The notes beneath the pieces were generated by a model. It ran no database searches. It was given only the letters and a program-made list of their open reading frames with translations, and was not told the origin of the DNA. A stretch of DNA of 63,509 nt, filler included, from Licmophora abbreviata (taxonomy: Eukaryota), in the NCBI GenBank assembly GCA_900291995.1. It is 11 parts of 11 records of this genome, joined end to end, with 100 filler letters (N's around TTAATTAATTAA, not from the genome) between each part and the next. Parts side by side here need not be neighbours in the genome. Positions count along the whole stretch, not along the records: positions 1 to 9,797 come from OLMU01005630.1; positions 9,898 to 12,673 come from OLMU01005632.1; positions 12,774 to 17,333 come from OLMU01005634.1; 8 more parts are not named here. The stretch is one strand, 5' to 3'. The stretch's first letter is position 1; each line of letters opens with the position of its first letter. A program made the position numbers and the translations under genes. Below, in pieces: positions 1 to 17,729 of this stretch.

Positions 1-2852
1 GGATGCTGCCGATGGACTTTTACGGGTTTGTGTGAGACACTCGGTGGAAGCTTCCCGCTAAGAGACGAGCCCATCGTTGACCCAGGCCGTGGCGCAGAGG
101 GCTCATCTTCGTCTTTCGGTCCAAAATCGTAAGGTACCAGCTTGGGACCCTCTCCGTCTTTGCCGCTCTCCGGAGGAGCCCATTCTCCTTTGAAATCTAG
201 GTCTTCCGGAAGCGTCTCTCCCTCAAGTGGATTCTGCGGTGGTTCGTTTCCAACACCAAAAGCCGAAATGTCCCCTCCACCTCCGTCCAAACCTTGCCCA
301 TACATTTCTGGTGGAGATAATGACGGTCCCGTGTCCGATCCACCTTGAGGGGGCGAGATTGCGCTCCCTCCAGGTGGTTGTTCCATTCGTGGGCCCCCGT
401 CGGGTGCAGCATCATAGGAAGAAACGTCTCCATTCATACCATAAGACGCTGTGTCGCCGTTCATACCGTACGATGCTGTGTCGCCGTTCATACCGTATGA
501 TGATGTATCCCCGTTCAAACCGTATGATGAGGTATCCCCGTTCATACCGTATGATGAGGTATCTCCGTTCATACCGTATGATGAAGTATCTCCGTTCATA
601 CCGTATGACGAAGCATCACCATTGGTACCATAGGACGACGACATTCCACTATCTCTTTCAGGCTTTCCTTGCCCAGACTTGAAATTGTAGGGGCTAGGAC
701 CCATTCCAGGTCCAAAACTGCCCTTACTCGCACCCGGACTGGCAGAAGAAATCGATTCCTCACCCATGAGTGACCCACTGTCCTTGAAATCAAACGGTTG
801 GACACCAGGACCCCCACCCGGTCTCGGACCACCTCCGTTCATACCATAGGGCGGCATGCCCCCATTCATTCCGTAAGGCGGCATTTCCCCGTCCATACCA
901 TAGGGCGGCGGCATTTCCCCATAATTACCATAGGGTGACATGTCTCCGCCGTACGGGTCCCCATCTTCTTCTTGTCCAGATTTGAACATATACGGACTGG
1001 GGCCCATTCCAGGTCCGGGACCAGTTTTACTTGCACCAGACATTCCCATGTTCGATTGGTTTGGGGGTGGTCTATCTCCATTCATACCATAAGGTGACGC
1101 GCCCATGCCTGATCCGCCTTGCGGCGCAGAGGGACCTCCTCCTCCAGGCGGTGGTCGCATCCTCGGACCCTCATCTGGACGGTTGCCATACGAGGACCTA
1201 TCTCCATTCATGCCATAAGACGATACGTCTCCGTTCATGCCATTAGAGGACCTGTCTCCGTTCATACCGTACGACGATTGATCTCCGTTCATACCATTCG
1301 ATCCTCCATCCCCATTCATACCATATGAAGTATCACCATTCATACCATAAGACGATGTATCTCCGTTCATGCCATAAGACGTGTCACCATTCATGCCATA
1401 CGACGCCGTATCTCCATTCATTCCATAAGACGATGCATCTCCATTCATTCCATAAGAAGGCATTCCACTGTCTCGTTGAGGCTTTTCTTTTCCAGACTTG
1501 AACATGTAAGGGCTAGGTCCCATACCGGGTGCAAACCCACCAGCGCCGGGGGGCGATTTCATGCCTGACTTCGATCCATCTTGCGGCGGAGGGCCTCCTT
1601 GAGGCGACGGCCTAGTTTGTCGAGGTGAAAAGGACTCCGAGCTGGGGCCTTTTGCTGGCCTGTAGCCACTACCGTTGACACCAGAAGACGACATCGACCC
1701 GGCTGGAGGAGCGCTTCCTTTCGGTGGATACTGCGGCGACGTGCGAGCACTTCCGTTAACACCAGAAGACGGCGTCGACCCAGGTTGCGGCGCTGACGGT
1801 GCACTTCCTTTCGGAGGGGCCTTGCTATCGCCGAAACTACCCCTTCTGGGACCCTGCTGCGATGCATCACCGCTTCCGTTTACACCAGACGACGGAGTCG
1901 GTCCGGCCGGCGGAACCGACGGAGCGCTTCCTTTGGGTGGCATCTTGCTCTTCCCATATGACGTGTATAGGTCCGGATTAACTCGATTCGTATCCGTTTC
2001 CTTACCCCCACTTTGAGTCCAGCCTCTCGTGGAGATGCCCATGCTCGGTCCCCCCTGCGACGGCGGCCCGCTTCCCTTGGGGGGTGGCGCCCTGTCCTCA
2101 AAGTTGTAAAGTTTAGGACCCTGCTTTGGTCGTCCACTTCCGTTCAAACCAGAAGACGGCGGTTGTCCGCCCTGTGGTGGGCCTCCTCTCGGTGGCGGCC
2201 TGGCCTGCGTGTATATCTCCGAGCTGGTCTTCGAAGTATTTGCACCGCCACCCGCTGGCCAACCTCTGTTGGACGGCGGTGGTCTGGAACCGAGCTGCGA
2301 TGATTGCTGATCAGACGGCTGGTTGGTCTTCGGCTTGGCCTCTCCCCCTTGTGGATTCTCTGGGGACCACTTTCCAGAGTTTCCAAGAGACAGGTTGCCG
2401 ATATTTGAGGACGAACGGGGGCCGGATTGAGTGGGTCTCTCTGGTGGTGTCCTCTTCGAAAATGAAAAAATATCCATCACATTCGGGCCCGATAGTTTCG
2501 ATTCCCCTCTGTTCGGAGAGCCCTTCGGAAAAGACGGTCTACGCAGCCCTGCAAAAGGGTTCCCGGGCCCCGACGAGCCGTCAGCAGGGGGCGTTTGGTT
2601 CATTGGAGCTCCACTGTCTTCGCCTTGTTGGCTACTCTCCTCTGGCCCGCTGCTAGACTCTTCGTTCCCACCATCTGACTCTGGGAAAGGGTCGCTGGGG
2701 TCGGACTGCATGTTCCAGCCGATTCTGTTGCGTGGAAGAGCCATGACAGGTCTGCTGTGGGCGCCACTGCGAAACGTAAACGTGAATCCAGCGGCAGGCC
2801 GAGGCCAAGCGAGAGCCATCAGCAGCGGGACAGCAAACATCGAACGAGTCAT
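1..2852 (-). CDS. Plastid-targeted low-complexity repeat protein 1 (Gly/Ser/Pro/Tyr-rich, prion-like); 3' end runs off the window
   Basis: Not in the ORF track because it has no stop in the window. ATG at 2852 reads MTRSMFAVPLLMALAWPRPAAG|FTFTFRSG. Translated segments are open down to base 3, and no track ORF ends in this frame (~950 codons). Contains many SYGMNGD repeats, 3x GMGPSPYxFKSG and 3x PPKGSAP...SSGVNGS. The + strand ORFs 451-633 and 1675-2016 are its antisense shadows. Confidence 0.8.
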   Translation of the reverse strand, partial: MTRSMFAVPLLMALAWPRPAAGFTFTFRSGAHSRPVMALPRNRIGWNMQSDPSDPFPESDGGNEESSSGPEESSQQGEDSGAPMNQTPPADGSSGPGNPFAGLRRPSFPKGSPNRGESKLSGPNVMDIFSFSKRTPPERPTQSGPRSSSNIGNLSLGNSGKWSPENPQGGEAKPKTNQPSDQQSSQLGSRPPPSNRGWPAGGGANTSKTSSEIYTQARPPPRGGPPQGGQPPSSGLNGSGRPKQGPKLYNFEDRAPPPKGSGPPSQGGPSMGISTRGWTQSGGKETDTNRVNPDLYTSYGKSKMPPKGSAPSVPPAGPTPSSGVNGSGDASQQGPRRGSFGDSKAPPKGSAPSAPQPGSTPSSGVNGSARTSPQYPPKGSAPPAGSMSSSGVNGSGYRPAKGPSSESFSPRQTRPSPQGGPPPQDGSKSGMKSPPGAGGFAPGMGPSPYMFKSGKEKPQRDSGMPSYGMNGDASSYGMNGDTASYGMNGDTSYGMNGDTSSYGMNGDTSYGMNGDGGSNGMNGDQSSYGMNGDRSSNGMNGDVSSYGMNGDRSSYGNRPDEGPRMRPPPGGGGPSAPQGGSGMGASPYGMNGDRPPPNQSNMGMSGASKTGPGPGMGPSPYMFKSGQEEDGDPYGGDMSPYGNYGEMPPPYGMDGEMPPYGMNGGMPPYGMNGGGPRPGGGPGVQPFDFKDSGSLMGEESISSASPGASKGSFGPGMGPSPYNFKSGQGKPERDSGMSSSYGTNGDASSYGMNGDTSSYGMNGDTSSYGMNGDTSSYGLNGDTSSYGMNGDTASYGMNGDTASYGMNGDVSSYDAAPDGGPRMEQPPGGSAISPPQGGSDTGPSLSPPEMYGQGLDGGGGDISAFGVGNEPPQNPLEGETLPEDLDFKGEWAPPESGKDGEGPKLVPYDFGPKDEDEPSAPRPGSTMGSSLSGKLPPSVSHKPVKVHRQH
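425..640 (-). repeat. 27-bp coding tandem repeat (YGMNGDTSS)n; degenerate copies also at ~830-945 and ~1190-1465
   Basis: + strand unit ccgttcataccgtatgatgaggtatct, ~7 copies. Confidence 0.9.
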
Positions 2853-3297
2853 TTTGTGAGAGAAATTTCAACCTCGAAAATGCTTTCAGGGAGGACTACG
2901 AAACTGGTGCAGCGTCGTTCTCTTGCCATTGGAGGCACAGGACGGTTTTCTTTTTGAAAGTTCTAGTGGCCGAAGATACCGGTAGACCAAGCTGCTTCGT
3001 GTCATCTGCAGAGGCGTGTCTGTTTGTCTGTGATGCGGTGCAGCAACGACAAACGGCTGGCAAAAAAAGAACGCGCAGAGCGGTTGGCAGATAAGATATC
3101 GATTTTTGATCAGGCGACTGGCCACCGTTCTTGGACTGAAAACCTGCAGGTAATAAGTAAAATGTGTTGAAGTACGTACGTATTAAATAAATACACTGAC
3201 GCACTCATGAGTAGTCAGAACGCGCGAGCCGACCTGAGCTCAACATGATTGTTGCTCAAAACTGGATGACAGCCCACCACCGCTACCGATCGTCACA

Positions 3298-3310
3298 CGT
3301 AGAAAGCTAC
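3298..3310. promoter_or_regulatory. Shared upstream element CGTAGAAAGCTAC (gene 1)
   Basis: Same GTAG-N4-CTAC motif found upstream of all five cluster genes; ~450 bp upstream of ATG 2852. Confidence 0.5.
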
Positions 3311-3831
3311 CTTGTTCTTCTACGCTAATGTCACATACGACGCCTAATATATTCATTTGCATCAGAACGCCAGTCGACAGTCCAAAACAAGAGAGCGCTC
3401 CTGCTCTTACACAAGGCGGCGAGCTAAGGAGTGAGTCGACTCGTTGCGATGTCAGCCCTCTACTTAGAAGTTCGTATCATACAATCCGCTTCTCAGGTAT
3501 GGCTACATGTCAGGAAGTACACATCTGCACAGAAGGGGTGCTCGTAGACTGCATAGTATTCGGTCCTTCAGGGGTGGACCAAAAACTCGTTTGACTTGCA
3601 ACACAATCGCTATCCAAACTACCTGTGAATTTCTACAAGCAGGAAGGCGATTCGTTCAACGATACTGTGACCGTGTGCATGCCATTTCTTACAGAAAACT
3701 ACGAGTACCACCTCTATCCACTATAGCTAGAGACGACACTGCTCTTACAATTCTTAAGCCTGTTCTTCACACCCGATGGCATCGTACCAACCACTCACTT
3801 TGTATGATTACTTAATTTCGTCTTCCGTGGA

Positions 3832-6800
3832 TTACTTGTAGCTGTTCATTTCGAATGTCTTGGTGTTGAAAGACCCGCTGTTGGACCCAGATGCCGGCGG
3901 AAACACGTAGTCGCCCTTGTTCGCGTCGGGACGCTCCTCGACTCTAGTGCTGCCTTTCACGCGGCTAGCGAATGTGTTCATGGCTGCCTGGTATGGCTGT
4001 TCAGTAGCACATACCCTGTCCACCTTTGGTTTCTTTCCTCTTGTCGCACCTGAGAAGCTCGACATGGCTCCGTGATACGGTTGTTCCGGAGACCACGCCC
4101 GAGCCGTCTGTGGGATCCCACCTCGCAACGGTTTTCTTGGTCCGTCTACTAGACGGCCACCAGGGGAGCCACCGTAAGCACTCGTCTTCGACACAAGTTT
4201 CCGAGACGAGTTTCCGATTGCACGACTCGGTGGCGAGGAAATGACTCCTCTCTCTGGGTCTTTTCTTGTCACACTACGAGCGGGAGGCTTTACGTTCAAC
4301 CCGGGTGGGAACGCTGACATGGACTGCCGTGCATGTTCCCATGCCCGGTTGGCCTTGGCTCGCACCCCCATAGCAGGGTTCTTCGCATCCTGTTTCACAA
4401 GGCCACCAGAAGGGTTCAGCACGGGACTCATTCCCCGAAGAGGTTTTCTCGGCGCAGAAGCTTGCTGAGCCGTGGATCCAAGCCTACGTCCAGCGAAAGC
4501 TTCCATGGCCCTAACAAGAGGTTGGCCCGTGCCAGTTCGGGGTTTCCCTCCTCTGAGCGGCGTCTTTGGTGGTCCTGAGCGGTAGCGTTGTTTCGGTCCG
4601 GACCGAGAATAGTTGACGGTCGTTCCACCCGCAAAACTCGACATGGCTTGCATATATGGCTGTTCAGGTGTCCCGACGCGGTCGGCACGCGGGTTTCGCC
4701 AAGATCCAGCGAACGCCCGTCTAGCTTCACGCTGCTCCACGTATGCGTCTACCTGATCTGCTACCTCCTCGATATAAGCAAGATGCTCTTTGCCCGCTTT
4801 GGCGGCATCACTGATCTCTGCGATATATCCTTCTGCCATGGGCGACGCTTGATCAGCAGCGGGGGGAGAGTAAGCATCTCGTGCCGCTGCGTTCGACAAG
4901 GCAGGTGCGGCAGCAGAGGTGCTCATGCTGTCAAGGTAGCCTCTACCCTTGGCTGCCGTCTTCGGCTTTCCTCTCGCGGGCATCTTTTTCACTGGGCTGC
5001 CACCGAGCGCCGTAAGGTAGTCTCCGCTAGCGGCCGCTGGTGTAGATGTCGTAGCAGGAGTAACAGGAACAGCATTAGGGGATGCGTGTGAAGCTGGCCC
5101 TGTTGAAGTGGAGGAGGGAGGTGTCGCAGCAGAGGTGCCCATATTGTCAAGGTAGCCCATACCCTTGGCCGCCGTCTTCGGTTTGCCTCTAGCGGGCATT
5201 TTCTTCACTGGGCCGCCACCCAGTGCCGTGAGGTAGTCGCCTCCCGCCGGAGTGTTCGGCCCGGACGCCGGAATCGACGAGAAGGCAGGAGCAGCGGGAG
5301 CAGCAGCGGCACCTGACCACGCTGGTGTCGCGACACTGCTCATGTTGTCCAGGTAGCCTCTACCCTTGGTCGCCGTCTTCGGCTTGCCTCTGGCAGGCTG
5401 CTTCGCCACTGCACCTCCACCGAGTGCCGTGAGGTAGTCGCCTCTGGCCGGAGTCGACGACAAGGCGGGGGCAGCAGGAGCGGCGCCCGACCACGCCGGT
5501 GTAGCGACACTGCTCATGTTATCAAGGTAGCCTCTACCCTTGGTCGCTGTCTTCGGTTTGCCTCTGGCAGGCTGTTTTGACACTGCACCTCCACCGAGCG
5601 CCGTGAGGTAGTCGCCTCCGGCAGGAGTGCTTGGTCCGACTGCCGGTGTCGACGACCAGGCAGAAGCAGCTGGAGCTGCAGGTGTGATCGTCACAGCACT
5701 GCCCATGTTATCAAGGTAGCCTCTACCCTTGGCCGCAGTCTTTGGCTTGCCTCTGGCAGGCTGCTTTGACACTGCACCTCCACCGAGCGCCGTGAGGTAG
5801 TCGCCTCCGGCAGGAGTGCTTGGTCCGACTGCCGGTGTTGACGACCAAGCGGAAGCAGCCGGTGTTGCAGCACTTCCCATGTTATCGAGGTAGCCTCTGC
5901 CCTTAGTCGCAGTCTTTGGTTTGCCTCTAGCAGGAATTTTCTTCACAGGACCTCCACCTAGTGCTGCGAGGTAATCTCCTTCGGCAGTTTTGCTCGTAGA
6001 GGCCGCCGCTGTCGACGACCAAGCAGGAGCAGCCTGCGTGCTCGACCTCGCCGGCGTCGCAACAGCACTACCCATGTTATCAAGGTAGCCTCTGCCTGCG
6101 GCCGCCGTCTTTGGCTTGCCTCTCGGAGGCTGCTTCAATACTGGACCGCCACCGAGTGCAGATAGGTAGTCTGCTCCAGCAGGATTGCTCGAGACGGCGA
6201 CCGGCGGAGAGATGGCAGCAACAGCCGGAGGAACACTTCTGACACGAGGAGGCGTTCGGGTCAAGGCCGAAAACTCGGGAAGGGGGGCATTCTGTGGATC
6301 TGCCATGAAGACATGCACTGACTGCGCGACGCCCTTCAAGTAGGAGAGGTAATCCTTTGCAGAGCTCACAGTGCCCTCCAAGTCGGACAAGTAGTCCATA
6401 GCTTCCACCGGAGTACCGGCTGGACTCGCTGCGACTGCGGTGCCTCCACCGTTCAAGTGTGCAAGCTTGGACCTGACGTCGTGGGCAAGTTGCTCCATGT
6501 AGTTCAGATAATCCATCGCCGAAAGGGCGGCCTTTTCAACATTCGCGAGATACTCCCTTACTTCCGCCGGGTTTTGGAGGTCAGGAAGATCAGCTCGTCC
6601 GCTGCTGAGCGATGGCGGTGGTGATCCCGGGGTCGATTCGAGATCTACTAGATAGGCTCTCACCACGGTCGCTACCTCCTCAAGATACCCAAGATACTCT
6701 TTCGCTGTTTCTGCACCAGCAGCGATCTGGTTGAGGTATCCACACGCCAATTTGAAACCTTCCTGTTCTGACTGGGACATCTGTCCTGCCATATCCATAT

Positions 6801-6984
6801 CGGAAAGAAGTCCACCGCCGACAGAAACTAAGCTTTTGGTAAGAACCTTCAGGTCCATGGCTGAATTGGCAAAGACAGACGCTGATGTCTTGACATACGA
6901 CGGAGGTCGCTGGACAAAGGCGGCTGCTCCGCCAAGGGCGCAAATTACGAGCATCGCCAGGGGCCTTGACATGGTCGATCTCAT
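3832..6984 (-). CDS. Plastid-targeted repeat protein 2 (1050 aa; 7x DYLxALGG-PARGKPKT-GYLDNM)
   Basis: Long ORF. Presequence MSRPLAMLVICALGGAAA|FVQRP. Four helical YLxx[LIV]...YLxY[LM]ExVA repeats, seven Ala/Pro/Lys-rich repeats, and C-terminal QPYxxAMxxF motifs. Confidence 0.88.
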   Translation of the reverse strand: MRSTMSRPLAMLVICALGGAAAFVQRPPSYVKTSASVFANSAMDLKVLTKSLVSVGGGLLSDMDMAGQMSQSEQEGFKLACGYLNQIAAGAETAKEYLGYLEEVATVVRAYLVDLESTPGSPPPSLSSGRADLPDLQNPAEVREYLANVEKAALSAMDYLNYMEQLAHDVRSKLAHLNGGGTAVAASPAGTPVEAMDYLSDLEGTVSSAKDYLSYLKGVAQSVHVFMADPQNAPLPEFSALTRTPPRVRSVPPAVAAISPPVAVSSNPAGADYLSALGGGPVLKQPPRGKPKTAAAGRGYLDNMGSAVATPARSSTQAAPAWSSTAAASTSKTAEGDYLAALGGGPVKKIPARGKPKTATKGRGYLDNMGSAATPAASAWSSTPAVGPSTPAGGDYLTALGGGAVSKQPARGKPKTAAKGRGYLDNMGSAVTITPAAPAASAWSSTPAVGPSTPAGGDYLTALGGGAVSKQPARGKPKTATKGRGYLDNMSSVATPAWSGAAPAAPALSSTPARGDYLTALGGGAVAKQPARGKPKTATKGRGYLDNMSSVATPAWSGAAAAPAAPAFSSIPASGPNTPAGGDYLTALGGGPVKKMPARGKPKTAAKGMGYLDNMGTSAATPPSSTSTGPASHASPNAVPVTPATTSTPAAASGDYLTALGGSPVKKMPARGKPKTAAKGRGYLDSMSTSAAAPALSNAAARDAYSPPAADQASPMAEGYIAEISDAAKAGKEHLAYIEEVADQVDAYVEQREARRAFAGSWRNPRADRVGTPEQPYMQAMSSFAGGTTVNYSRSGPKQRYRSGPPKTPLRGGKPRTGTGQPLVRAMEAFAGRRLGSTAQQASAPRKPLRGMSPVLNPSGGLVKQDAKNPAMGVRAKANRAWEHARQSMSAFPPGLNVKPPARSVTRKDPERGVISSPPSRAIGNSSRKLVSKTSAYGGSPGGRLVDGPRKPLRGGIPQTARAWSPEQPYHGAMSSFSGATRGKKPKVDRVCATEQPYQAAMNTFASRVKGSTRVEERPDANKGDYVFPPASGSNSGSFNTKTFEMNSYK
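4920..6180 (-). repeat. Seven ~165-210-bp coding repeats in repeat protein 2
   Basis: Recurrent + strand blocks catgttatcaaggtagcctctaccctt... and ccaccgagcgccgtgaggtagtcgcc... Confidence 0.9.
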
Positions 6985-7195
6985 TCTGTGCCTTCTCTTT
7001 CAAGCCTCACGATCAGGAGCAGCGAGGTTTTGACAGACAAGGCTGATGGATTTTACAACTTTGATGGCAATGCGATCTTTTTTTCTGTTGGATGGATCTC
7101 TGTGATTGCTCTGTGATGATGCCTCCTGCAAAAGATCGGCACAAAATCACCGTCACGCACAAATCAAAATTCACCATGGCTCGGCTAGCTCCAAA

Positions 7196-7213
7196 TGCGT
7201 AGAAACCTACGCA
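7196..7213. promoter_or_regulatory. Shared upstream element TGCGTAG-AAAC-CTACGCA (gene 2), perfect 7-bp inverted repeat
   Basis: ~215 bp upstream of ATG 6984; matches consensus CGTAGAAANCTAC. Confidence 0.6.
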
Positions 7214-7826
7214 ATGTTTGAAATGTGGAAACCTACACAAAAGTCAAATTTTGAAATGGACGGCTCAGAGGCACTCGTACGTCATTATTGGCTCATATCC
7301 CATCTTACATTGCTAGCACAACACACAAACCAAACGATCTAACTCAAAGGACCTTGTTTCTTGTATTACTCATATCAGAATTCATCTTAAATGTTAAACA
7401 ATCATTGCAATTGAAGCCGCCGTCGGTTAGACTTGTCTACGGGAAGGCGTTCTGGTGGTGCTGGACTTTGGCACCTACTTAGAAGACTATGGTTAGATAG
7501 CCTTCTTGTACCTGGGAGTTAAAATGCAACGCATATGATCCCCATCACATGATCTACATTTCACCCTTTTGGTCGACACCAGGAAGGGAGCTGGTTCACA
7601 TCGTTACCTACCGTAGCTACGAAGCTACGCTACTGCGTGTTTGTCGACGCAGAAACGAAGGCTATTGTTTAAAATAGTAAGGCAGCTCTACTTGACTTCA
7701 AGGGCCGTTCCTATCTACATCGTACTGAAAGCTGATCTCTGTACTGACATGCCTCGCACACGAAGACTTCCATCATGCAACGTAAGTTTGCCCGCTTTTG
7801 ACTATTTGAAGTATCCTGCACTAGAT

Positions 7827-9377
7827 CTAGGGCGCGAAACCGGACATCCGAGTGCCGTTGGCAAAAACGACCTTCCTCGCTTTCATGCTAACTGATGTCC
7901 TGGTGGGGGTGTAGCTAGTTGTCTCGCTTGTGTCGGCCGGGCTGCCCGCGACTGGTTTAGAAATAGCGACCCTCATACGTTCGGAAGTGCGCACCGTCAC
8001 CAACTTGCCATCCATACTGATAGCATCGGCGCTTGATTTCTCGTAGCTATCCGCAGATAGAGGAGAGAGAAAGCCCGCGTAAGCCTCCATATACGAGGCG
8101 CTCGGTTCCAGTGTCGCAGCACGTTCGTTCGCTGCAAGAAACGATGACCGTTTTGACACCCGAGTGGGATGTACGTCAGGCTTCCTTGACATCTTCCTCC
8201 AAGGATTGCCAGTCCGGCCAGAGGAAAGACCGTTGGGGGCCGCCACCATTGCTTCCAGCGGAAGTTTTGCGGCCTTCGGGGCACTCGTGGCTCGTTCGTG
8301 AGGAGCCATACTATCGGTAGGCCCACATCCCTGCGGTAGCAGTGTTACGCTATCGGTCGGCGCGGCTTTCTTTGCCATCGCGAAGTATTTCCTCATGTTT
8401 GACTCCGTTCGAGGCGGTCCCGAGACATTTCCATCCGTTCCAGACGCAGCGAATCCCGACATGGCCATTCCATGAGGCGTTTCGTTGGACGAAAAGGGCT
8501 TCTGCTTGAGCCTGACGGCTTCTGTCCTTGGAGCAACCCTCGAACGTTCGATGTATCCAGACGGGGCGCTACGATGAGTGGCCGTACTTGTCCGACTTGC
8601 AGGCAGAGAAGATAGCTCTCGTTCTGTTGTCTTTGGCGGTGAGCTCTTTGCGAGCGCGAAGTAGCTTCTCAGTGTTGAGTCCGTCCGACGTTTCGTGTAC
8701 GTTTTCCCGTCTCGACCGGATGCATCGAAGGCCGCCATGGCCCTTTCAAAGGGCGCATCATGCATTGAAAGTGTCTTTGGTTTAGCCCCCGCCATGGACG
8801 AGTTTCTCAGGGGTCTATTGGAAGACTCCATGGATCCAGCTGAAGCAGTGTTGCACGAAGATACCATGTTCGATTCACGCGGATGTGAGTTATCGGCTGG
8901 ATTTGTCTCTGTCGCCGGGGCCTTTAGAAGAGCAGAGCTATTCTTGATCGTCCCAGGCTCCAACTGAGGATTTGATCCCGTTCCTCTTTTCCTTTCGGAG
9001 GATACAAACGAAGACACCGTTCTGTGATACTGTAATCCATCGTTCGATGAAGACGTCCTTCGGTGCCCTGGCTCTATGGAATCAGGAGGAATCATTCTGA
9101 GATACGGTCGGATCTTCGACGAAGGCTGTCGCTCCATCTCCTTAGATGGTACACTGCTACTCTTTGGAAAGGAGAAGTCAACCCTTGCAGCCGACTGAGT
9201 TCCCGCGGACCTGTCCACAGCGACCGAATTGGTTTTTGGCGCGTCTCCCCTGAGCAGTTTCTTCAATCTCGCTTCTGACATAATCCTACGAAAGCAGGCG
9301 CCGGGAACAAGCGTAAACCCAGCTGCAACGTGAAGCAGCGTTGCTAGCAGCATCACAGCCTGCATCAACCGCATCAT
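7827..9377 (-). CDS. Plastid-targeted Ser/Arg-rich disordered protein 3
   Basis: ORF 7827-9440. Likely start MMRLMQAVMLLATLLHVAAG|FTLVP at 9377 (in-frame upstream ATG at 9437). Two repeats PF/HxxAMxxFxASGxDG...RTxSx[LM]RxYFAxAK. N-terminus paralogous to gene 4. Confidence 0.8.
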   Translation of the reverse strand: MMRLMQAVMLLATLLHVAAGFTLVPGACFRRIMSEARLKKLLRGDAPKTNSVAVDRSAGTQSAARVDFSFPKSSSVPSKEMERQPSSKIRPYLRMIPPDSIEPGHRRTSSSNDGLQYHRTVSSFVSSERKRGTGSNPQLEPGTIKNSSALLKAPATETNPADNSHPRESNMVSSCNTASAGSMESSNRPLRNSSMAGAKPKTLSMHDAPFERAMAAFDASGRDGKTYTKRRTDSTLRSYFALAKSSPPKTTERELSSLPASRTSTATHRSAPSGYIERSRVAPRTEAVRLKQKPFSSNETPHGMAMSGFAASGTDGNVSGPPRTESNMRKYFAMAKKAAPTDSVTLLPQGCGPTDSMAPHERATSAPKAAKLPLEAMVAAPNGLSSGRTGNPWRKMSRKPDVHPTRVSKRSSFLAANERAATLEPSASYMEAYAGFLSPLSADSYEKSSADAISMDGKLVTVRTSERMRVAISKPVAGSPADTSETTSYTPTRTSVSMKARKVVFANGTRMSGFAP

Positions 9378-9514
9378 CTTGAACAAACAGCTTTTTCTGT
9401 TGCGTTGATTTTTGATTTTGTCATTGTGATGATCCATCACCCATCACCCATCACTCGCGCCAGTTTTGAATTTCGAAATTGGAAGGAAATGTCAAGTGCG
9501 CGAGTAGAGATTCG

Positions 9515-9527
9515 CGTAGAAATCTAC
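9515..9527. promoter_or_regulatory. Shared upstream element CGTAGAAATCTAC (gene 3)
   Basis: 138 bp upstream of ATG 9377. Confidence 0.6.
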
Positions 9528-9797
9528 AGGAAAAAGTCGACCAACAATCCAGCGTGCGTTCCACATCCGCATTATTGATATTTTGTTATGTGAGAGGTCG
9601 AACGCCAAGGAACAATGATGGAAGTTTGAATCAATGTTGCCGATGGCCCTGGCGGGAGTGGACCGATAGACTAGGAGAGTCTAGTAGACCTAGAGACTAC
9701 CGGTAGTGCATTCGAATCCTTTCTATAATGGCCTTTCATAGAACGTTAGTACAACTTAGTCAGGTGCAATGAGTGTCATTTTTTAAAATCACTCTTT

Positions 9798-9897
9798 NNN
9801 NNNNNNNNNNNNNNNNNNNNNNNNNNNNNNNNNNNNNNNNNTTAATTAATTAANNNNNNNNNNNNNNNNNNNNNNNNNNNNNNNNNNNNNNNNNNNN
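9798..9897. other. Artificial contig spacer (N44-TTAATTAATTAA-N44); identical spacers at 12674-12773, 17334-17433, 20675-20774, 26421-26520, 31357-31456, 39469-39568, 58852-58951, 60128-60227, 62157-62256
   Basis: Exactly 100 bp each, with a six-frame stop linker. Confidence 0.98.
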
Positions 9898-11422
9898 ATG
9901 GCCATGCGACCCAGGGTGTGATAAACTGCCTTTAGACTCTGACAAGCCGTCCTGTCGCTTCGGTGTCGTGCTCTTCGTGTGCGCGAATGAACTCCGCGAC
10001 GATGACCGGGCTGGAAGTCTCGCTGCCGCCGTCCCGTCCATCTCGGATGCTGCCAGCGACGGCAAGCTATCGTATGATGAAGTGCCTCTTTTCTTATCAG
10101 ACGCGATGGGAGGAACATTTCTAATCGACGACGGGCGAACGATCGACCCAGACTCAGACACGTTGCCATTCGGCTCTGGTGAGCTCCCTTTCGGCTTGGG
10201 TGCCGTCTTTTTCATTGGCGCAAAGAGACTCCTCAACGATGAGCCTGTGGGAAGCGCCGCTGCCGTCTCCTCATCCTTTTCGGAATCCGTCAACAAAGGT
10301 GCTTCTTCACTATTTGAAGTCCCTTGCTTCTCAGCCTCGCTGGAGTCAGAAGGAATACTCATGGTGGATGACGGGCGAGTACTCGACCCAGGCTTCAACA
10401 TGCTTCCATTTATACTCCCAGACATTGGCAATAAGCTTTCGTTTGGTGTCATGTTCTTTATGGGTGCCAAGTCCCTCTTCTGCGGTGAGACCCTTGGAGC
10501 TCCCGCCTCCACCATTCCATCCCTTTCGGATGCTACCAACGACAGCGATTGTTCGTGAGATGAAGATGGCTCCATCTTCTCAGCCTCACTGGAGTCAGAA
10601 GGAACACTCATGGTGGATGACGGGTGAGTACTCAACCCAGGCTTCATCACGCTTTCGTTTCTATTCGCAGACACTGGCAAGCTTTTGTGCGGTGTCATGT
10701 CCTTTATGGGCGCCAAGTCGTCACTCTTCTGCGGTGAGACCCTTGGAGCTCCCGCCTCCACCACTGCATCCCTTTCGGATGGTTCGTGAGATAAAGATGT
10801 CCTTTTCTTCTCATCCTGTGTAGAATCGGAAGGAATATTCCTGGTGGATGGTTGGCGAATAGTCGACCCAGGAATCATCACGTGTTCGTCATTATTCACA
10901 GATACTGGCAAGCTTTCTTTCGGTGTCATGCTCTCTGTTGGCGCGATGTCACTCCTCTGCGGTGTTCCCGTTGGATCTTTCGCTGCCACGTTTCCATCCA
11001 TTTCGGAGGATACCAACGAAGGTGAACTCTCGTGCGGTGGAGACGCCGCCTTTGTCTCAGCCTGAATGGAATCAGAAAGCGATTTTCTGGTAGACGATGC
11101 ACGAACATTCAATCCAGGCTCGGGTACGTTTTCTTCGCTGTCCGGTTCGCTCTCTTTAGAGTCTGCTACACATTCTTTGGAATCTGGCGCGCTAGCTTTT
11201 AGGTTCAGGCTCGTCGGCAAACTTTGCAAAGAAGAATTCATCGCTCACAGAAGAGGCGGACAGAGAATTTGGATGTAATTTTCGCATTTCTCCATTGAAC
11301 AGTTTCCTCAATCGCGCTTCTGAAAGAATCGTCCGAAGAGAGGCACTGCGAGGGGGCGTAAACCCAGTCGCAAGCGTTAGCCACACTGTCAGTAGCAGGA
11401 CAGCCTGCATGAACCGCATCAT
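9898..11422 (-). CDS. Plastid-targeted Ser/Pro-rich repeat protein 4 (apparent frameshift at ~11197-11200; 3' end in gap)
   Basis: ORF 11192-11422 (MMRFMQAVLLLTVWLTLATG|FTPPRS) joins ORF 9850-11241 if one A is removed from CCTAAAAGCT, giving ...EPEPKASAPDSKE. About five ~70-aa repeats (PGSSTRPSST..IPSDS..AEK...SE[RMK]DG...LAP[IM]KxxTP). Confidence 0.75.
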
Positions 11423-11560
11423 CGTGAAGAAACCGGTTCGAGTTTGAGTTCTCTTTTCTCCATGGTGATTCTAAGCTCAGAGTTCAGAACTTCAAAGCGT
11501 TTCAATCTTTAAGTCGATTTTGTGTCTGTATACTACGAAGTACTAGGTACCAGATGTTTG

Positions 11561-11573
11561 CGTAGAAACCTAC
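11561..11573. promoter_or_regulatory. Shared upstream element CGTAGAAACCTAC (gene 4)
   Basis: 139 bp upstream of ATG 11422. Confidence 0.6.
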
Positions 11574-12080
11574 GGGAGAGCACTCTGTACGTCGTACGTT
11601 GGGAGTGTATGAACACAGAAGATTCGATCCCCAGCGTTTCATTAAACTTTCACAAGAAAGTATTATCTTTTATGAGAGTACGCACGTTGGAGAGTGATCG
11701 ACGACGCAGACAAGCATACACTGCACACACCAGAGTCAGTCAGACGCTTTGCGTTTGAAGGGCTATCTGCACTATCGTCGATTGGCGGCGCCGAGTTACA
11801 CACTGTGCTGCATCGGTAGACCCTGCCGTTTGCACCGTTATCAGCCACCCATCACACTTCCACCTACTGTAGAGAGTAAACTGTACTTGTATGGGCAAAC
11901 ACATCTTGTTAACCTTAGCTCTGCGATGTTTGAAATGATGGTATCATGTCGGTACTGTCGCCTGGTCGGCTTTAGCGATGGCGCTCGACTGCTCGGGAAT
12001 TTTCTTGTGTCCTCGCTCTCCTCCTGAACTAGTCGATGCGAATTGCTCTCGTCTGCAAATTCGCTAAAAATATTGTCGAA

Positions 12081-13392
12081 CTAGGAAGCCAAGCTCTGAA
12101 CCCTGGTCCCATCAATCCTAGACGACACAAACTCGGTCATGGCTCTAGCATAAGGCGATTCTACGGACGAAGCAAATGAAAACTCCGCCGGCTTGGGTTG
12201 ATGAGACCCGGGTGGAACATTGTTGAGAAACGGCTCGAGATTAGACCCTGCCACTGGCGCACCACCGCTCGGGCGCGCTGTGCTCGTGGCAAGTGCCGAT
12301 GTAGAGGTCGCGGAGTTCGCCGTCGAGCTCGCTACGAGAGCCGCCGTGTTCTTGATTGGTGTCAAGTTACGGGGTCCTGCAACCCTTCTCCCATCGATGC
12401 CGGACAGCATAAACTCTGCCATGGCTCTTTCATAGGGGGTTTCTACTCTCGATGCAAAAGAAGCCTGTTCTCGGTTCGCGGGCCCGGGATAGCCCGGTGG
12501 GACATTGTTGAGGAAGGGCTCCAGATTCGAACCTCCCCGAGGTGCTCTCACAGCTGGAAAATCAGCGCTGGTCGTAAGCGCGGAGCTGCTCTTTGTCAGG
12601 GTTGAGGCAAACAGGGACGTCTTGGTTGCGAAAGCTGGTTTCACGTTCAACCCTGATTTGATGGATCCGTGTGNNNNNNNNNNNNNNNNNNNNNNNNNNN
12701 NNNNNNNNNNNNNNNNNTTAATTAATTAANNNNNNNNNNNNNNNNNNNNNNNNNNNNNNNNNNNNNNNNNNNNTTGGCGGGTGCAGCCTCTTCCACTGCA
12801 GCCTCTTTCGGTGCAACAGCCGTGTCCTTGGCGCTGGTCTCCTTGGCAGTTGCACTCTTCTTGTTGGGTGCCAGCGTTTTGGCAGCAGTACCCGTAGTAG
12901 TAGCAGCAGCAGTGGTGGTGGCGCGTCTCGCTACCCTCCTCCCATCGATCCCCGAAAACAGAAACTCCAACATGGTCCTCTCGTAGGGCGATGCTTCCTT
13001 CGATTCAAATAAGCGCGCCAGATTCAAGCGAATGTCCTTGTAGTAAGAGCCAGGTGGGACATTAAAGAGAAACGGCTCACTGTCCGAACGCGGAGCCCTC
13101 TCTTTCGCCTGTGGTGGTGTAGTAGTCGTCGTTGTTACGAAACCACTACTCTCCGTGTTGCTCCCGTCGGAGATGATAGAAAGACCTTGTGTAGCATTCT
13201 GGTCGTATCTTTTTGACTGCTGCTGCTAGTAGCTGGGACGGACCCTGCTGCATGATGTGAGAAACTTCGTCCCTGCGAGCCTATAGAGCCACTGTTGATG
13301 AATGGAGCAAATTGTAGCGTGAATCCAGCCACAAGCTGTGACCCGCACAGAGCCATCAGAAGCGGAAGAACGTGTGCAGAGAGAATCAACAT
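12081..13392 (-). CDS. Plastid-targeted repeat protein 5 (spans gap 12674-12773; apparent frameshift at ~13210-13214)
   Basis: ATG 13392 MLILSAHVLPLLMALCGSQLVAG|FTLQF. Adding one A in CAAAAAGA links it to the frame RYDQNAT...EPFLFNVPPG...SPYERTMLEFLFSGIDGRRV. The same repeat (EPFLNNVPPG...PYERAMAEFMLSGIDGRRV) occurs twice more after the gap, in ORF 12081-12650. Confidence 0.75.
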
Positions 13393-13575
13393 CCTGACAG
13401 AGAGACTGAGAGAGGGTCTGCAGAAGTGCACTCACTTGTCTATTAGTCTACTGTCGTGTGGAAGTGAGTGTTAACCGAACGTGAGAATCGAATCAACCTG
13501 AAAACTGAAAATCCATTCTTGCGTGGTGCAGTTTTGAGTGTTGAAGCGAGCTCTCGTCGGCCGGTAATGATTTCG

Positions 13576-13588
13576 CGTAGAAATGCAC
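13576..13588. promoter_or_regulatory. Shared upstream element, variant CGTAGAAATGCAC (gene 5 / divergent ALDH)
   Basis: 184 bp upstream of ATG 13392; TTCGCGTAGAAAT is identical to the gene 3 site. Confidence 0.45.
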
Positions 13589-13914
13589 TTCACGGCATTT
13601 CAGTCGAAGGATTCTAACACTCCTGCACGGTCGTGAGCGAACTTGTACAAACGGAAGGGTTTGCTGACGACTACTAAGTATCGTAGTATACTGGCGCGAT
13701 AGGAATTGGATGACGTGTTTTTAGTTTTTAGCTCGAAGTCGCAACAGACGCAACGTCGCAGTGTCGGATATATCTGGTTAACCTAACTGCTTACCGTCCA
13801 TGGCATTGCTTTCATCGATAAAACCTTGCAACGTTAGCGAGAACGACCGCAAGCCGCAGCCCCGCAAGAAGCAATCCGAGCTCCTCCCTCCCGAAGTACC
13901 GGTGTGAGTAGAGA

Positions 13915-15747
13915 ATGAACGCCGCTTCGAATCTGCTTTCGGGCGTCGAAACGTCTCCTCAGACGGCAGTTCTGGCCAGCCTCTGCGCCGTGCTCCTGTA
14001 CCTCAAGCTCGCGGACTGGAATGTCTTCTTTCAACTTAGACTCGCTCTCGAGTTTCTCCTCCCCGTCCCCCTGATCCATGTGGAAATGACCTCCGCCGAA
14101 GCCGAGGACGACGGAGTCCGCTCCAAGCCGTCCAGAACCACCGATCTCAGAGACCGCAAACGCCCTGGCTTCATCCAGTGCTACGACCCCTCCACGAAAC
14201 AGCGTCTCGGCGAAGTCGTCGCCATGACCGAACAAGATGTCCACGATCTGTGCGAGAAAGCTGCCAAGGCCCAAAAGACATGGGCCAAGACTACTTTTGC
14301 AGAACGACGCAAAGTGCTTCGCACCATGCAAAAGTACATTGTCCATCATATAGAGGACATTTGCCGCGTCTGCTCTCGCGACTCGGGCAAGCCCAAAGTC
14401 GATGCCTTGCTCGGGGAAGTCATGACGACTTGTGAAAAGATTCGATGTATGAATGCCAATGGCGAACTCTGGTTGCGGCCTTCCTACCGGCCGACGGGAC
14501 CCATCATGGTGCACAAGTCCGCCTTCGTCGAGTACGTTCCCTTCGGAGTGCTCGGGGTCATTGCACCTTGGAATTATCCTGCGCATAACATGTTCAACCA
14601 CATTATCTCAGGCATTTTCGCTGGAAATGCCGTGGTAGGAAAGGTCTCGGAACACACCTCGTGGAGTGCCGAGTACTTTTCGCGCATCGTGTCCAAGGCC
14701 TTGGAGGTGCATGGACATGACCCCGACTTGGTCCAGACGGTAACGGGGTTCGGCGAGGCTGGGGCCGCGCTCGTTGCGGATCCGCTCGTCGACAAGGTAA
14801 TCTTTACAGGATCTCCTGCTGTTGGGAAGAGGGTCATGGAGGGAGCGTCGAAACATCTCAAGCCCGTCATTTTGGAATTGGGCGGCAAAGATGCAATGGT
14901 CTTTTGTGAGGATGTCAAGCTAGAGGATGTCCTTCCGTGGGCTATGCGTGGGTGCTTCCAGAACTGTGGTCAAAACTGCTGCGGAGTCGAGAGGCTCTTT
15001 GTCTACGAGGGTATCCACGATGAGTTCATTGACAGGATTCGCGTCAAAGTGGAAGGTCTTCGTCAGGGAGTCCCTTTGAAGACTTGCGGCTCTAGTGGTG
15101 ATGTTGATTGTGGCGCCATGGTGATGGATGGCCAGATGCCTATCATTCAGGAGCTCATTGACGATGCTGTGGCCAAGGGGGCGACTCTGCATTGTGGCGG
15201 GAGGCGGAACCCGAACCTCAGTGGACAATTTTATGAACCGACTCTCATTAGTGGCATTACTAGCAACATGAGAATTTCTCAAGAGGAAGTGTTCGGACCC
15301 GTCATGTGTGTTGTTAAAGTACCGAATGATGATGACGATGAATGTGTCCGCCTCGTGAACAACTGCAACTTTGGCCTTGGCTCGAGTGTCTATTCTGGAC
15401 GCCAGGCGCGAGGAGTCAAGATTGGTCGTCAGATTCGTAGTGGAATGTTCACAGTAAACGACTTTGGAGTGAATTATCTCATCCAGAGTCTTCCTTTCGG
15501 CGGAGTCAAGGAGAGTGGATTTGACCGATTTGCTGGCCCGGAAGGTCTTCGCGCGTGCTGCCTAGAACGCTCTATGGTATTGGATCGCATCCCGGGAGTC
15601 AGGACTTCCATCCCGCAGCCAATCAACTACCCTATCGACAAGAACAAGGGATTGCCGTTTTGTTTGTCCTTGATTCGGCTATTGTACGACGAAAGCTGGC
15701 TCGGAAAAATGATGGGAGTATTTGGGCTAATGAAGAACGGTTCCTAG
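13915..15747 (+). CDS. NAD(P)-dependent aldehyde dehydrogenase, ALDH22A1/MSC7-like with N-terminal membrane anchor
   Basis: APWNYP, FTGS, ILELGGKD (catalytic Glu), FQNCGQNCCG (catalytic Cys), EEVFGPV, QSLPFGGVKESG; hydrophobic N-terminal extension. Confidence 0.93.
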   Translation: MNAASNLLSGVETSPQTAVLASLCAVLLYLKLADWNVFFQLRLALEFLLPVPLIHVEMTSAEAEDDGVRSKPSRTTDLRDRKRPGFIQCYDPSTKQRLGEVVAMTEQDVHDLCEKAAKAQKTWAKTTFAERRKVLRTMQKYIVHHIEDICRVCSRDSGKPKVDALLGEVMTTCEKIRCMNANGELWLRPSYRPTGPIMVHKSAFVEYVPFGVLGVIAPWNYPAHNMFNHIISGIFAGNAVVGKVSEHTSWSAEYFSRIVSKALEVHGHDPDLVQTVTGFGEAGAALVADPLVDKVIFTGSPAVGKRVMEGASKHLKPVILELGGKDAMVFCEDVKLEDVLPWAMRGCFQNCGQNCCGVERLFVYEGIHDEFIDRIRVKVEGLRQGVPLKTCGSSGDVDCGAMVMDGQMPIIQELIDDAVAKGATLHCGGRRNPNLSGQFYEPTLISGITSNMRISQEEVFGPVMCVVKVPNDDDDECVRLVNNCNFGLGSSVYSGRQARGVKIGRQIRSGMFTVNDFGVNYLIQSLPFGGVKESGFDRFAGPEGLRACCLERSMVLDRIPGVRTSIPQPINYPIDKNKGLPFCLSLIRLLYDESWLGKMMGVFGLMKNGS

Positions 15748-15900
15748 CTAGCAAAGTTACATCGTCTGATGCAATACCCGTATGTACTAGGACAGCTGTT
15801 GCTCAATAGGACGTCGCTCTCCTTACCGTGTGTTTGCGATGATGCAGCGCCCCAGCAACCAGCCGCAGTTACGTTTCTGAGCACAGAGCTCGCCAAGAGC

Positions 15901-17032
15901 CTATGTTGCGGTGTTGGAGGCAGCCCGTGCTAGTTCATGGTACCGCTCCGTGACACTAGCACCCAAATAGGCCAACTCAAGCTCCCATTTCTCCAAGGAT
16001 GACTGACAAAGAACTCGGCGACCCAGCTGTTCGGTTTCTAGCCACAGAATCTCTCGAAAGAATTGTTCTAGTGCAGTCTTGTAGATCATCATATCGACTT
16101 GAGACAGCGATTCCACGGCTCGTAATGTCTCCTGGGACAAATCGCGGAGAATCGGACGGCGCCCATAGCTGTGATGCGTCTGATGTGTATCTTCTGTACT
16201 CAGTGCGATCGGGCAAACACATTCCGTGTCCAGGTATGCTTGAACGCTGGTACTGCGACTCTGTATTCTTTGAAACAAGAGACATTTACTTTCGTGGAAG
16301 AACTCAGGCAAGGCAACGAAGTCTAGGTCCCATAAAGTCCAGTTTGCGAGCGTCGGGTCAGGCGAGATATTGGGGGGAGGATGACCTCGCGGTAGCTTCT
16401 CTGTGGCAGTAAGGTACTGACTGATGTAGTTCGATGGGTCTAAGCATTCGTAGCTGTGTTCAGCTGGCGCCGGAAAACCCGAGACGAAGTGTGTGAGCCA
16501 CCGATTGAAGTCGATGATATCACTCTCCGCGGTGTTTCCGCTTCTTGGAAAGTTCGTCTTTGAAGTCGTCTCTTTCCCCCAGGAGGAGTACTTGCATTCT
16601 GCAAACTGAGACCATATGTGATGTCGGGGACTCTTAATTGATGTCGCAAGATAGGCACTTGGGATATTCATACGTTGCCATTCGACGCTCCACTCAGCTC
16701 CTCGTTCCTGGCCCGGATATACATAAGGGAGCACGGCTCTCAGCTCATGAATCCATGAAGCACCGGCGGTTTTGGCAATGTGAATGAACCCAAACGGCTC
16801 GTTATTGATAAAACTGGAGCATCGATGGGGTGCAATTTCACAAGCGGTTCTATAATGAGAGTCGAGACTGGATTTTCGCGTTGCTCCTGGAGGCATCGCT
16901 GAATGTTCCTGCTATTTCACGAAAGTTTAGAACCATGACGAGACCTACACTCATGGCAGCAAGCAGACAGAAGGCTGCCGAGAAAGGAAAGCTACAGCCT
17001 CGCTTGGTTTGTTTCAGTTCAAGCCGATTCAT
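15901..17032 (-). CDS. Type II membrane (Golgi-type) sulfotransferase, copy A (apparent frameshift at ~16873-16876)
   Basis: FIHIAKTAGASW (5'-PSB loop) and KSPRHHIWSQF (3'-PB-like). The N-terminal TM ORF 16850-17032 joins on removal of one A (GCGAAAATCC vs GCGAAATCC in copy B). Confidence 0.78.
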
Positions 17033-17729
17033 GATAGCCTTCTATATTTCTTGGCTCGTCGCGGTCGATAAAGAGCGTCTTGCAATGCAATTTGATGAAG
17101 AAGATCTTGGTCGAGAGTCAAGTCGAGAGTGTGCTGAAAGTTGTTTTCAGCGCACCAGCAAGAAGCGACGTATCATATCATGCGGGTAGTATAGTAGTAG
17201 TATCGTATGATATGTATGATACAGGTACCGGTGTGCGTACCTCTAGTAGCCAAAAATAGGTATTTATTGTATACATCTTTTAAACTTTTGAATGACAAAA
17301 TGTGGGATAAGTATCATTACCGTTGGGCTATTANNNNNNNNNNNNNNNNNNNNNNNNNNNNNNNNNNNNNNNNNNNNTTAATTAATTAANNNNNNNNNNN
17401 NNNNNNNNNNNNNNNNNNNNNNNNNNNNNNNNNATGAGGCCGATGCTGCTGGTACCCCGTTACCATAAACGGTTGGGAATCTATTTTCCGTTGCAGCCAG
17501 TACCTATACATAGCTCGGACCTACCATCCACAGGCGCATTTGTCTGTATGTCATTCTTGTAAAGGGATCGTCGTCTAAACAACTGACTCGACTCACTCCT
17601 TCCCATTCAGTAGACCTAGGAGTTTGTCCAATCAAGATTGTTTTTCTACATGTAGCAAGGTCTTTGAAAAGTCGCATTTGTCCCGAGATGCGTGGTAGAT
17701 CTACCATCCACCAGCGCATTCTGGGGATG

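Follow-up and report, generated by a model that had tools for sequence, protein, structure and literature searches.

We have analysed a stretch of DNA of 63,509 nucleotides (nt) from the diatom Licmophora abbreviata (assembly GCA_900291995.1), called the window in the following, whose six-frame translation comprises 127,014 residues. It contains a cluster of five genes, all on the minus strand, and the subject of the present work is a short peptide motif, PYxxAMxxF, that recurs in the proteins of genes 2, 3 and 5. The window is made up of 11 contig pieces, separated by spacers of the form N44-TTAATTAATTAA-N44 at 9798-9897, 12674-12773 and eight further places. Genes 1-3 are located on piece 1 (1-9797) and gene 4 on piece 2 (9898-12673), while gene 5 is divided, with its 3' part also on piece 2 and its 5' part on piece 3 (12774-17333). 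The neighbourhood across the spacers comes from the assembly, and adjacency is not visible in the sequence itself.

The PYxxAMxxF motif in three proteins of the cluster

The pattern P[YFLH]..[AT]M..F has nine matches in the six frames. They are restricted to the minus strand and to three genes, with four copies in gene 2, two in gene 3 and three in gene 5 (Table 1). Shuffling the residues of the three proteins 20,000 times gave a mean of 0.00235 matches and a maximum of 1, a comparison to be read with the reservation that repeat copies inside one gene are not independent events. The proposal of the first-pass annotation, that one motif is common to these three genes, is thus borne out at each of the peptides it had listed. 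With a profile built from the nine copies, no other place in the window scores more than 5 bits.

When the copies are aligned as nine 35-residue segments, the Pro, Met and Phe positions are invariant, the Met is preceded by Ala in eight cases, and the aromatic position is occupied by Tyr in six. An acidic residue is found two places ahead of the Pro in seven of the nine. The motif had also been proposed to continue as xxSGxDG. This extension, which can be written as M..F...[GR].DG (SG.DG), is present in five copies and confined to genes 3 and 5, while the gene 2 copies lack it. A second motif suggested for genes 2, 4 and 5, GLNV[KR], does occur in these three genes and nowhere else in the six frames (4288-4302, 11101-11115 and 12639-12653). 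The instance in gene 4, GLNVR at 11101-11115, belongs to a looser repeated unit of the form PG-x-x-x-[RH]-x-SS.

We now consider the motif at the DNA level. Between genes, the motif DNA is 37-65% identical over 57 nt, and the codons vary, with all four Pro codons, both TTT and TTC for Phe, and both TAT and TAC for Tyr being used. Because the nucleotide sequences and the synonymous codons have diverged to this extent while the Pro, Met and Phe residues are invariant, the motif is conserved at the peptide level and the copies are old. Without exception, an xCC codon precedes the invariant Met, namely GCC in all eight Ala cases and ACC in the single Thr case. GCC makes up 22% of the Ala codons in these genes, and other Ala-Met pairs use it in one case out of seven. 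As a side observation, the xCC codon creates an RCCATG sequence in the motif copies (for example at 12420-12425 and 4642-4647), a Kozak-like context, so that nucleotides, too, are conserved within this peptide motif.

Gene 2 has a signal peptide and three N-terminal helices of the YLxYLEEVA type, followed by seven repeat units, a long helix and a C-terminal region with the motif copies. Gene 5 has three repeats of ca 58 residues, each with an EPFLxNVPPG element and, some 20 residues later, PYxRxMxEFxxSxIDGxRV.

Some further short elements were noted in the same regions. EPFLxNVPPG precedes the motif by about 20 residues in all three gene 5 repeats (12084-13090, minus strand), and gene 3 has one look-alike of it, RPYLRMIPPDS. 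In the gene 2 tail (3835-4700, minus strand), P[RK][KT]PLRG[GM] occurs three times, and AWS[SGP] occurs six times across the repeat spacers and the tail of this gene, including the AWSPEQ just ahead of motif copy 3.

Table 1. Features of the window, with positions counted along the whole stretch. AF2, AlphaFold2 model; pLDDT, predicted score of the local distance difference test; pI, isoelectric point; the arrow marks the cleavage site of the signal peptide.
Feature	Positions	Strand	Basis or remarks
Gene 2 motif copy 1, PYMQAMSSF, residue 776	4633..4659	-	regex; no helix in AF2 model
Gene 2 motif copy 2, PLVRAMEAF, residue 822	4495..4521	-	regex; AF2 helix 124-132 of 351-residue query
Gene 2 motif copy 3, PYHGAMSSF, residue 969	4054..4080	-	regex; no AF2 helix; AWSPEQ just before
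Gene 2 motif copy 4, PYQAAMNTF, residue 997	3970..3996	-	regex; AF2 helix 297-312 of 351-residue query
Gene 2 degenerate motif-like copy, ending QSMSAF	4318..4377	-	missed by regex; predicted helix, residues 870-889; GLNVKP directly after
Gene 3 motif copy 1, PFERAMAAF	8727..8753	-	regex and alignment; followed by DASGRDG
Gene 3 motif copy 2, PHGMAMSGF	8451..8477	-	regex and alignment; followed by AASGTDG
Gene 5 motif copy 1, PYERTMLEF	12962..12988	-	regex
Gene 5 motif copy 2, PYERAMAEF	12411..12437	-	regex; AF2 helix 72-83, residues 71-80 mean pLDDT 72
Gene 5 motif copy 3, PYARAMTEF	12129..12155	-	regex; AF2 helix 166-179, pLDDT blocks 64 and 63
Gene 2 DPC2-like repeat region, seven units	4885..6189	-	Pfam PF25195 and unit positions
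Gene 1	3..2852	-	acidic, G/S/P-rich; signal peptide ending AAG↓F; C-terminus beyond window
Gene 2	3832..6984	-	1050-residue basic repeat protein, pI 9.96; signal peptide ending AAA↓F
Gene 3	7827..9377	-	516 residues, basic, pI 10.4, S/A/R/P-rich; signal peptide ending AAG↓F
Gene 4	9898..11422	-	signal-peptide exon 11192-11422; acidic S/P/E-rich repeat body 9898-11241
Gene 5	12081..13392	-	signal-peptide exon 13135-13392 (VAG↓F); N-terminal part 12774-13133; linker 12674-12773; C-terminal part 12081-12671
Palindromic element CGTAGGTTTCTACG	7198..7211	-	214-227 nt upstream of gene 2 ATG
Element TGTAGATTTCTACG	9515..9528	-	138-151 nt upstream of gene 3 ATG
Palindromic element CGTAGGTTTCTACG	11561..11574	-	139-152 nt upstream of gene 4 ATG
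Half-site TTCTACGC	13575..13582	-	183-190 nt upstream of gene 5 ATG
Element GGTAGCTTTCTACG (3298-3311, -) and second half-site TTCTACGC (3318-3325, +)	3298..3325		446-473 nt upstream of gene 1 ATG

Structure, addressing and relatives of the carrier proteins

The motif had been described as helical. Single-sequence AF2 models were calculated for the C-terminal part of gene 5 and for residues 700-1050 of gene 2, and they are mostly disordered, with mean pLDDT values of 51-52. In the gene 5 part there are three predicted helices. The two longest coincide exactly with the two motif copies and are the stretches with the highest pLDDT, and the third, a short one (44-48), sits on EPFLN. In the gene 2 part, helices are predicted on copies 2 and 4, together with a helix that ends in the QSMSAF variant and a confident 50-residue helix upstream. 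A helix is thus predicted for four of the six folded copies, and none for copies 1 and 3 of gene 2. The conserved aromatic, Met and Phe side chains are located at i, i+4 and i+7.

In all five cluster genes the protein opens with a hydrophobic signal peptide. The last residue of this peptide is small, Phe comes next, and a basic, hydroxylated stretch follows. The sites, read by eye, are AAG↓FTF, AAA↓FVQ, AAG↓FTL, ATG↓FTP and VAG↓FTL for genes 1 to 5, respectively. Diatom plastid presequences are said to obey the ASAFAP rule, by which Phe, or alternatively Leu or a different aromatic residue, stands after the cleavage site. Since the signal peptides end in [AG]↓F, which is of the diatom plastid type, all five proteins look plastid-addressed.

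We now turn to the repeat region of gene 2. Its units, GDYLxALGGGxVxKxPARGKPKTAxKGRGYLDNM, start at residues 272, 337, 395, 458, 516, 583 and 655, that is, with a spacing of 58-72 residues (units of ca 63 residues), and the corresponding DNA has tandem periods of 174 and 363 nt. The Pfam family PF25195 (DPC2, Diatom pyrenoid component 2) matches the whole protein in five stretches with 50.6 bits and an E-value of 2.9e-13, and the 441-residue repeat region with 60.4 bits and an E-value of 2.5e-16. According to the Nam et al. preprint, DPC2 of T. pseudonana is found in the pyrenoid matrix, as seen with a green fluorescent protein (GFP) fusion, and is a Rubisco-interacting hub; in the part of the preprint available, no linker with repeats of ca 60 residues is identified in T. 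pseudonana. Rubisco linkers have been described, in the sections of the literature at hand, as having at least three repeats, disorder, a pI above 8 and a spacing of ca 60 residues (FLIPPer-type criteria). Gene 2 fits this description, having seven units at the spacing given above, a pI of 9.96 and modelled disorder in residues 700-1050, and Ala, Gly, Ser and Pro account for 48% of its residues. The proteins of genes 2, 3 and 5 are all strongly basic, with a pI of about 10. Judged by the profile match and the layout, gene 2 encodes a DPC2-like repeat protein that is built as a scaffold of the pyrenoid matrix would be. It resembles DPC2 of T. pseudonana in that its seven units fit the family profile, and differs from it by the added N-terminal helices and C-terminal motif region and by a score under the curated cut-off.

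The word-indexed protein search with the whole of gene 2 gave one match (P0001) out of 7999 scored candidates, and with residues 575-1050 also one (P0003) out of 8000. With the C-terminal part of gene 5 there were 309 candidates, of which none obtained a score. P0003, a metagenome protein precomputed as PF25195.2, is 52% identical to the gene 2 units and has at least four of them at similar spacing, but the PF25195 scan gives only 41.5 bits. It is a fragment that covers repeat units alone and ends before any tail. P0001, a metagenome protein of 703 residues, has only the DPC2-type units in common with gene 2; two such units are, unexpectedly, fused to aspartyl-protease domains (PF13650, PF13975). 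The motif profile (A1), run against 1.84 billion representatives, had a sole match with E<=0.001, P0002, which was judged to be an artefact, the periodic translation of a repeat array. No motif copy is present in P0001, P0002 or P0003. The same profile gave three matches in the PDB with E-values of 0.97-2.2, which were taken as chance, and the ESM Atlas returned no usable match for the gene 2 tail or for gene 3. A scan of JGI metagenomes with the gene 5 repeat alignment yielded 88 pattern matches, one of which passed tblastn. This sequence, L001, was rejected as a relative, being an unrelated open reading frame of 1226 residues with a lone ATPYERAMSE that was judged to be due to chance.

Another issue is how the carrier genes are related to each other. 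By blastp, genes 3 and 5 are 34% identical over 120 residues (E 1.8e-6), genes 3 and 4 have their first 50 residues in common at 52% identity (E 4e-9), and the two halves of gene 5 are related to each other (E 1e-16). Hidden Markov models (HMMs) built with one gene left out confirm the link between genes 3 and 5, the gene 3-only model finding gene 5 with an E-value of 1.7e-10 and the gene 5-only model finding gene 3 with 2.1e-6. Between gene 2 and genes 3 and 5, blastp finds the motif alone (E 0.023). With the gene 2-only model, the two best non-self matches among 1534 segments are gene 3 (E 0.078) and gene 5 (E 0.12). On these comparisons genes 3, 4 and 5 are detectable paralogs, and there are two carrier lineages, namely the gene 3/4/5 paralogs and the gene 2 tail. 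The first-pass annotation had called the three carriers otherwise different proteins, a description that fits gene 2 and does not fit the pair of genes 3 and 5.

Finally, the upstream regions of the cluster were inspected. A palindrome, CGTAG-NTTT-CTACG(C), occurs in the window solely upstream of genes 1-4, gene 5 having a half-site only. The distance to the ATG is 138-227 nt for genes 2-4 and 446-458 nt for gene 1. The form GTAG-N4-CTACG has four distinct sites, all upstream of genes 1-4, against 0.15 expected matches, and this points to co-regulation. The half-site TTCTACGC occurs eight times in the window against 1.15 expected, and five of these occurrences are upstream of genes 1-5. The palindrome is probably a common transcription-factor site of the cluster. 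It differs from the known CO2/cAMP-responsive element TGACGY, for which no enrichment is seen: 74 matches were expected and 55 counted, and each cluster promoter has 0-1 of them. A literature search for the palindrome core as a diatom cis-element found no paper.

A possible docking motif for the pyrenoid and its alternatives

The picture that can be proposed is the following. PY/FxxAMxxF would be a short linear motif under selection, taking up the form of a short helix with the Pro as its cap, and it would be carried in several copies by three neighbouring disordered basic proteins that look plastid-addressed and are probably co-regulated. It would act as a multivalent 'sticker', each copy docking weakly in a hydrophobic groove of one common pyrenoid partner. 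In this way the proteins of genes 3 and 5 would be brought into the condensate of gene 2, with the several copies providing avidity. A candidate for the partner is Rubisco, possibly at the large-subunit cleft that is used by the C-terminal helices of PYCO1. Since the motif occurs far above chance, is predicted to be helical in four of six modelled copies, and is found in proteins with plastid-type presequences, one of which is DPC2-like, a pyrenoid docking motif is the most economical reading. We favour tentatively, with a confidence that stays somewhat short of even, a multivalent docking helix for a common pyrenoid partner, with Rubisco as the leading candidate. We infer the presence of the gene 3 and gene 5 proteins in the pyrenoid, any binding and the identity of the partner from the context described above.

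Diatom pyrenoids fix about a fifth of global CO2, and to our knowledge no motif for targeting or for Rubisco binding has been recognised as common to their proteins. In our literature searches, which covered the supplements of Nam et al. and Oh et al. in part, no shared diatom pyrenoid motif of this kind was described; the readable part of the supplement of Oh et al. 2023 contains protein identifiers only, and no motif words were found there.

Among the closest known systems is PYCO1 of Phaeodactylum tricornutum, whose weak large-subunit-binding helices hint, in diatoms, at the docking logic known from green algae. According to Oh et al. 2023, this protein binds the Rubisco large subunit via the short helices AAEWGSMNQ and ASEWASMNT, and its authors mention variations of the helix in other Phaeodactylum proteins; as far as the accessible part of the paper goes, the main sticker is otherwise found in Phaeodactylum only in a short PYCO1 isoform. 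Common to both is a short helix (a predicted one here) close to the C-terminal end of a repeat protein that is, or here would be, a component of the diatom pyrenoid. This helix combines an aromatic residue with a small-small-Met-polar arrangement, and copy 4 of gene 2 (YQAAMNTF) has A-[SA]-M-N-T in common with the second helix. However, the two PYCO1 helices are without the Pro cap and the Phe at +3 after the Met that are invariant here. The pattern [AS]-E-W-[GA]-S-M-N-[QT] (Oh et al. 2023) fits none of the nine copies, as none of them has a Trp or W-x-x-M.

Two other systems were used for comparison. In green algae, EPYC1 and other pyrenoid proteins of Chlamydomonas, as well as SUPA1 and four more proteins of Ulva, are described, in the portions of those reports that were available, as having shared Rubisco-binding motifs. 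In common with the present case there is one short motif, helical or folding on binding, of which a disordered basic linker has several copies and which recurs in further proteins of the organelle. The sequences, on the other hand, are unrelated and the lineage is another one (here a red-type plastid with form ID Rubisco), two of the three carriers here are paralogs, and binding is a proposal in the present case. The Chlamydomonas motif is of the W-[RK]-x-x-[LIVA] type and binds RbcS helices. No copy of PYxxAMxxF has a Trp, so that the analogy made in the first-pass annotation is one of logic only. In the diatom beta-carbonic anhydrases PtCA1 and PtCA2, a C-terminal amphipathic helix is reported to localise the protein to pyrenoids (Kitao and Matsuda 2009, via PMC11142338, as far as summarised there). 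As would be the case for the present motif, a short helix reportedly places a diatom stromal protein in the pyrenoid, but in a single copy on a folded enzyme. The comparison was made by description, and there is no evidence of kinship.

Several observations speak against the docking motif. None of the collections searched yielded a motif-bearing relative. Genes 3 and 5 have no family match in the domain family scan, and the scores of gene 2 with the DPC2 family, although significant, do not reach the gathering score of 70 bits. Genes 3 and 5 are paralogs, which means that their common motif may be a matter of simple descent; the link to gene 2 rests on a core of 8-11 residues, and the combined gene 3+5 profile finds no domain with E<1 in the gene 2 copies. 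Two of the four gene 2 copies are without a predicted helix, and where helices are predicted the pLDDT is only about 50-72. The motif had been suggested to be amphipathic as well, and for this there is little backing: the Eisenberg hydrophobic moment exceeds that of shuffled sequences at p<0.05 in one of the nine copies and is otherwise unremarkable. Finally, the register differs from that of the PYCO1 helices, with Y-x-x-x-M in place of W-x-x-M and Tyr or Phe in place of Trp.

We have also considered the case where the helix has a docking partner in the pyrenoid or plastid that is not Rubisco, such as PyShell, a carbonic anhydrase, CbbX or the pyrenoid-penetrating thylakoid membrane. The plastid address and the DPC2 context fit this option equally, and the Nam et al. 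preprint reports that DPC2 of T. pseudonana links several non-Rubisco nodes and that DPC3 and DPC4 interact with Shell4. However, no candidate partner is encoded in the window, and binding of those proteins by a motif of this sequence is without precedent. A helix on the membrane surface is, in addition, disfavoured by the weak hydrophobic moment. We consider a non-Rubisco partner to be unlikely.

Another option is that the binding partners of the helices are further motif helices or different helices within these proteins (for example YLxYLEEVA of gene 2), so that self-association or condensation would take place without Rubisco. Multivalency and disorder are features of all the motif carriers, four long conserved helices are present in gene 2, and the PYCO1 stickers GTGYNP and KWSP self-associate according to the part of Oh et al. 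2023 at hand. The motif helices are, however, short (9-14 residues) and weakly amphipathic, and with a pI of about 10 for all three proteins mutual association is disfavoured in the absence of an acidic partner. Such homotypic binding thus appears distinctly unlikely.

It could also be that there is no common partner, and that genes 3, 4 and 5, perhaps with the gene 2 tail, arose from one ancestral repeat by tandem duplication, the motif being merely the slowest-evolving part, for example a structural element or a site of processing or modification. The genes are adjacent and on the same strand, have related signal peptides and upstream elements, and genes 3 and 5 can be aligned over 120 residues; the constant xCC codon before the Met could reflect a constraint other than partner binding. 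Descent alone would nevertheless leave the four copies in gene 2 unexplained, because outside the motif no similarity of this gene to genes 3 and 5 can be detected. Moreover, where Pro, Met and Phe stay invariant amid freely varying synonymous sites and fully diverged flanks, the peptide must have remained under selection in three copy lineages. A remnant of this kind is, in our judgement, improbable.

Silaffins and cingulins, disordered proteins of the biosilica cell wall, have signal peptides, low complexity, repeats and clustered genes. That the cluster encodes secreted proteins of this type, as its signal peptides, its S/P/G/K-rich low-complexity repeats and the tyrosine-rich repeats of gene 1 might suggest, is very improbable, since all five presequences have the Phe after a small-residue cleavage site and the basic, hydroxylated stretch that form a plastid and not a secretory signature, and since the family match of gene 2 is to DPC2, a pyrenoid family, with none to a family of wall proteins.

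If the docking motif is indeed common to a DPC2-like scaffold and its neighbours, it would provide a search pattern for new pyrenoid proteins. The motif peptide could then be used in pull-downs and structures with form ID Rubisco, and as a portable tag for engineering. Clustered and apparently co-regulated genes with a palindrome would, in addition, open the transcriptional control of diatom pyrenoid structural genes to study.

A more far-reaching version of the docking motif involves gene 1. This gene has no PYxxAMxxF copy in the part present in the window. It has many tyrosine repeats of the form (SSYGMNGD)n, one exact KWSP (GKWSPENPQGG), the two W-x3-GG variants RGWPAGGG and RGWTQSGG, and three PSPY[MN]FKSG elements; no GTGYNP was found in it, and no match in the PDB. 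PYCO1 has repeated stickers of the form KWSPR/Q-GGS (such as KWSPRGGS) and the tyrosine motif GTGYNP, as given in the available part of Oh et al. 2023, and in its composition of short elements gene 1 is reminiscent of this Rubisco linker. One can speculate that the five genes form a core pyrenoid-matrix module, in which gene 2 would be a DPC2-derived Rubisco linker, gene 1 a PYCO1-like tyrosine/tryptophan-sticker protein, and PYxxAMxxF a 'universal' motif for Rubisco binding and pyrenoid targeting, the first one in the red plastid lineage, uniting scaffold and clients, with all genes switched on via CGTAG-NTTT-CTACG by one dimeric transcription factor. We regard this extended scheme as doubtful.

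Gene models and remaining parts of the window

In genes 4 and 5, a change of frame is needed shortly after the signal-peptide exon (11192-11241 and 13135-13260, respectively). These changes could be due to a short intron or to an assembly indel. Canonical GT..AG introns were considered, and there are 42 (gene 4) and 68 (gene 5) stop-free candidates, none of which could be singled out. The signal-peptide exon of gene 4 begins with MMRFMQAV and ends with ATG↓F, and the start of gene 3 is likely MMRLMQAV. The 3' end of gene 4 is cut by the contig linker, and the part present is without a PYxxAMxxF copy.

Parts of the window are carried by marine metagenome runs alone, with a best share of 0.28, and none of the runs listed is from RNA. 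The metagenome contigs that match the window are 100-600 nt long and near-identical to it, and they include intergenic DNA. They therefore stem from the same organism, and are silent on expression, splicing and conservation across species. From this occurrence the window was read as part of a metagenome-assembled genome of an uncultured marine alga, and the plastid-type presequences and the match to a diatom-specific Pfam family indicate a diatom or a close relative.

Two observations concern parts of the window outside the cluster. The last three contig pieces (58952-63509), with a GC content of ca 0.6, carry genes for AT3-SGNH acyltransferases and part of one for an aldehyde dehydrogenase; these may be bacterial contigs that were binned with the alga. 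At 44835-49857 on the plus strand there are pyruvate:ferredoxin oxidoreductase domains and, after them, flavodoxin/FAD/NAD(P) reductase domains, which looks like a fusion gene of the pyruvate:NADP+ oxidoreductase type.

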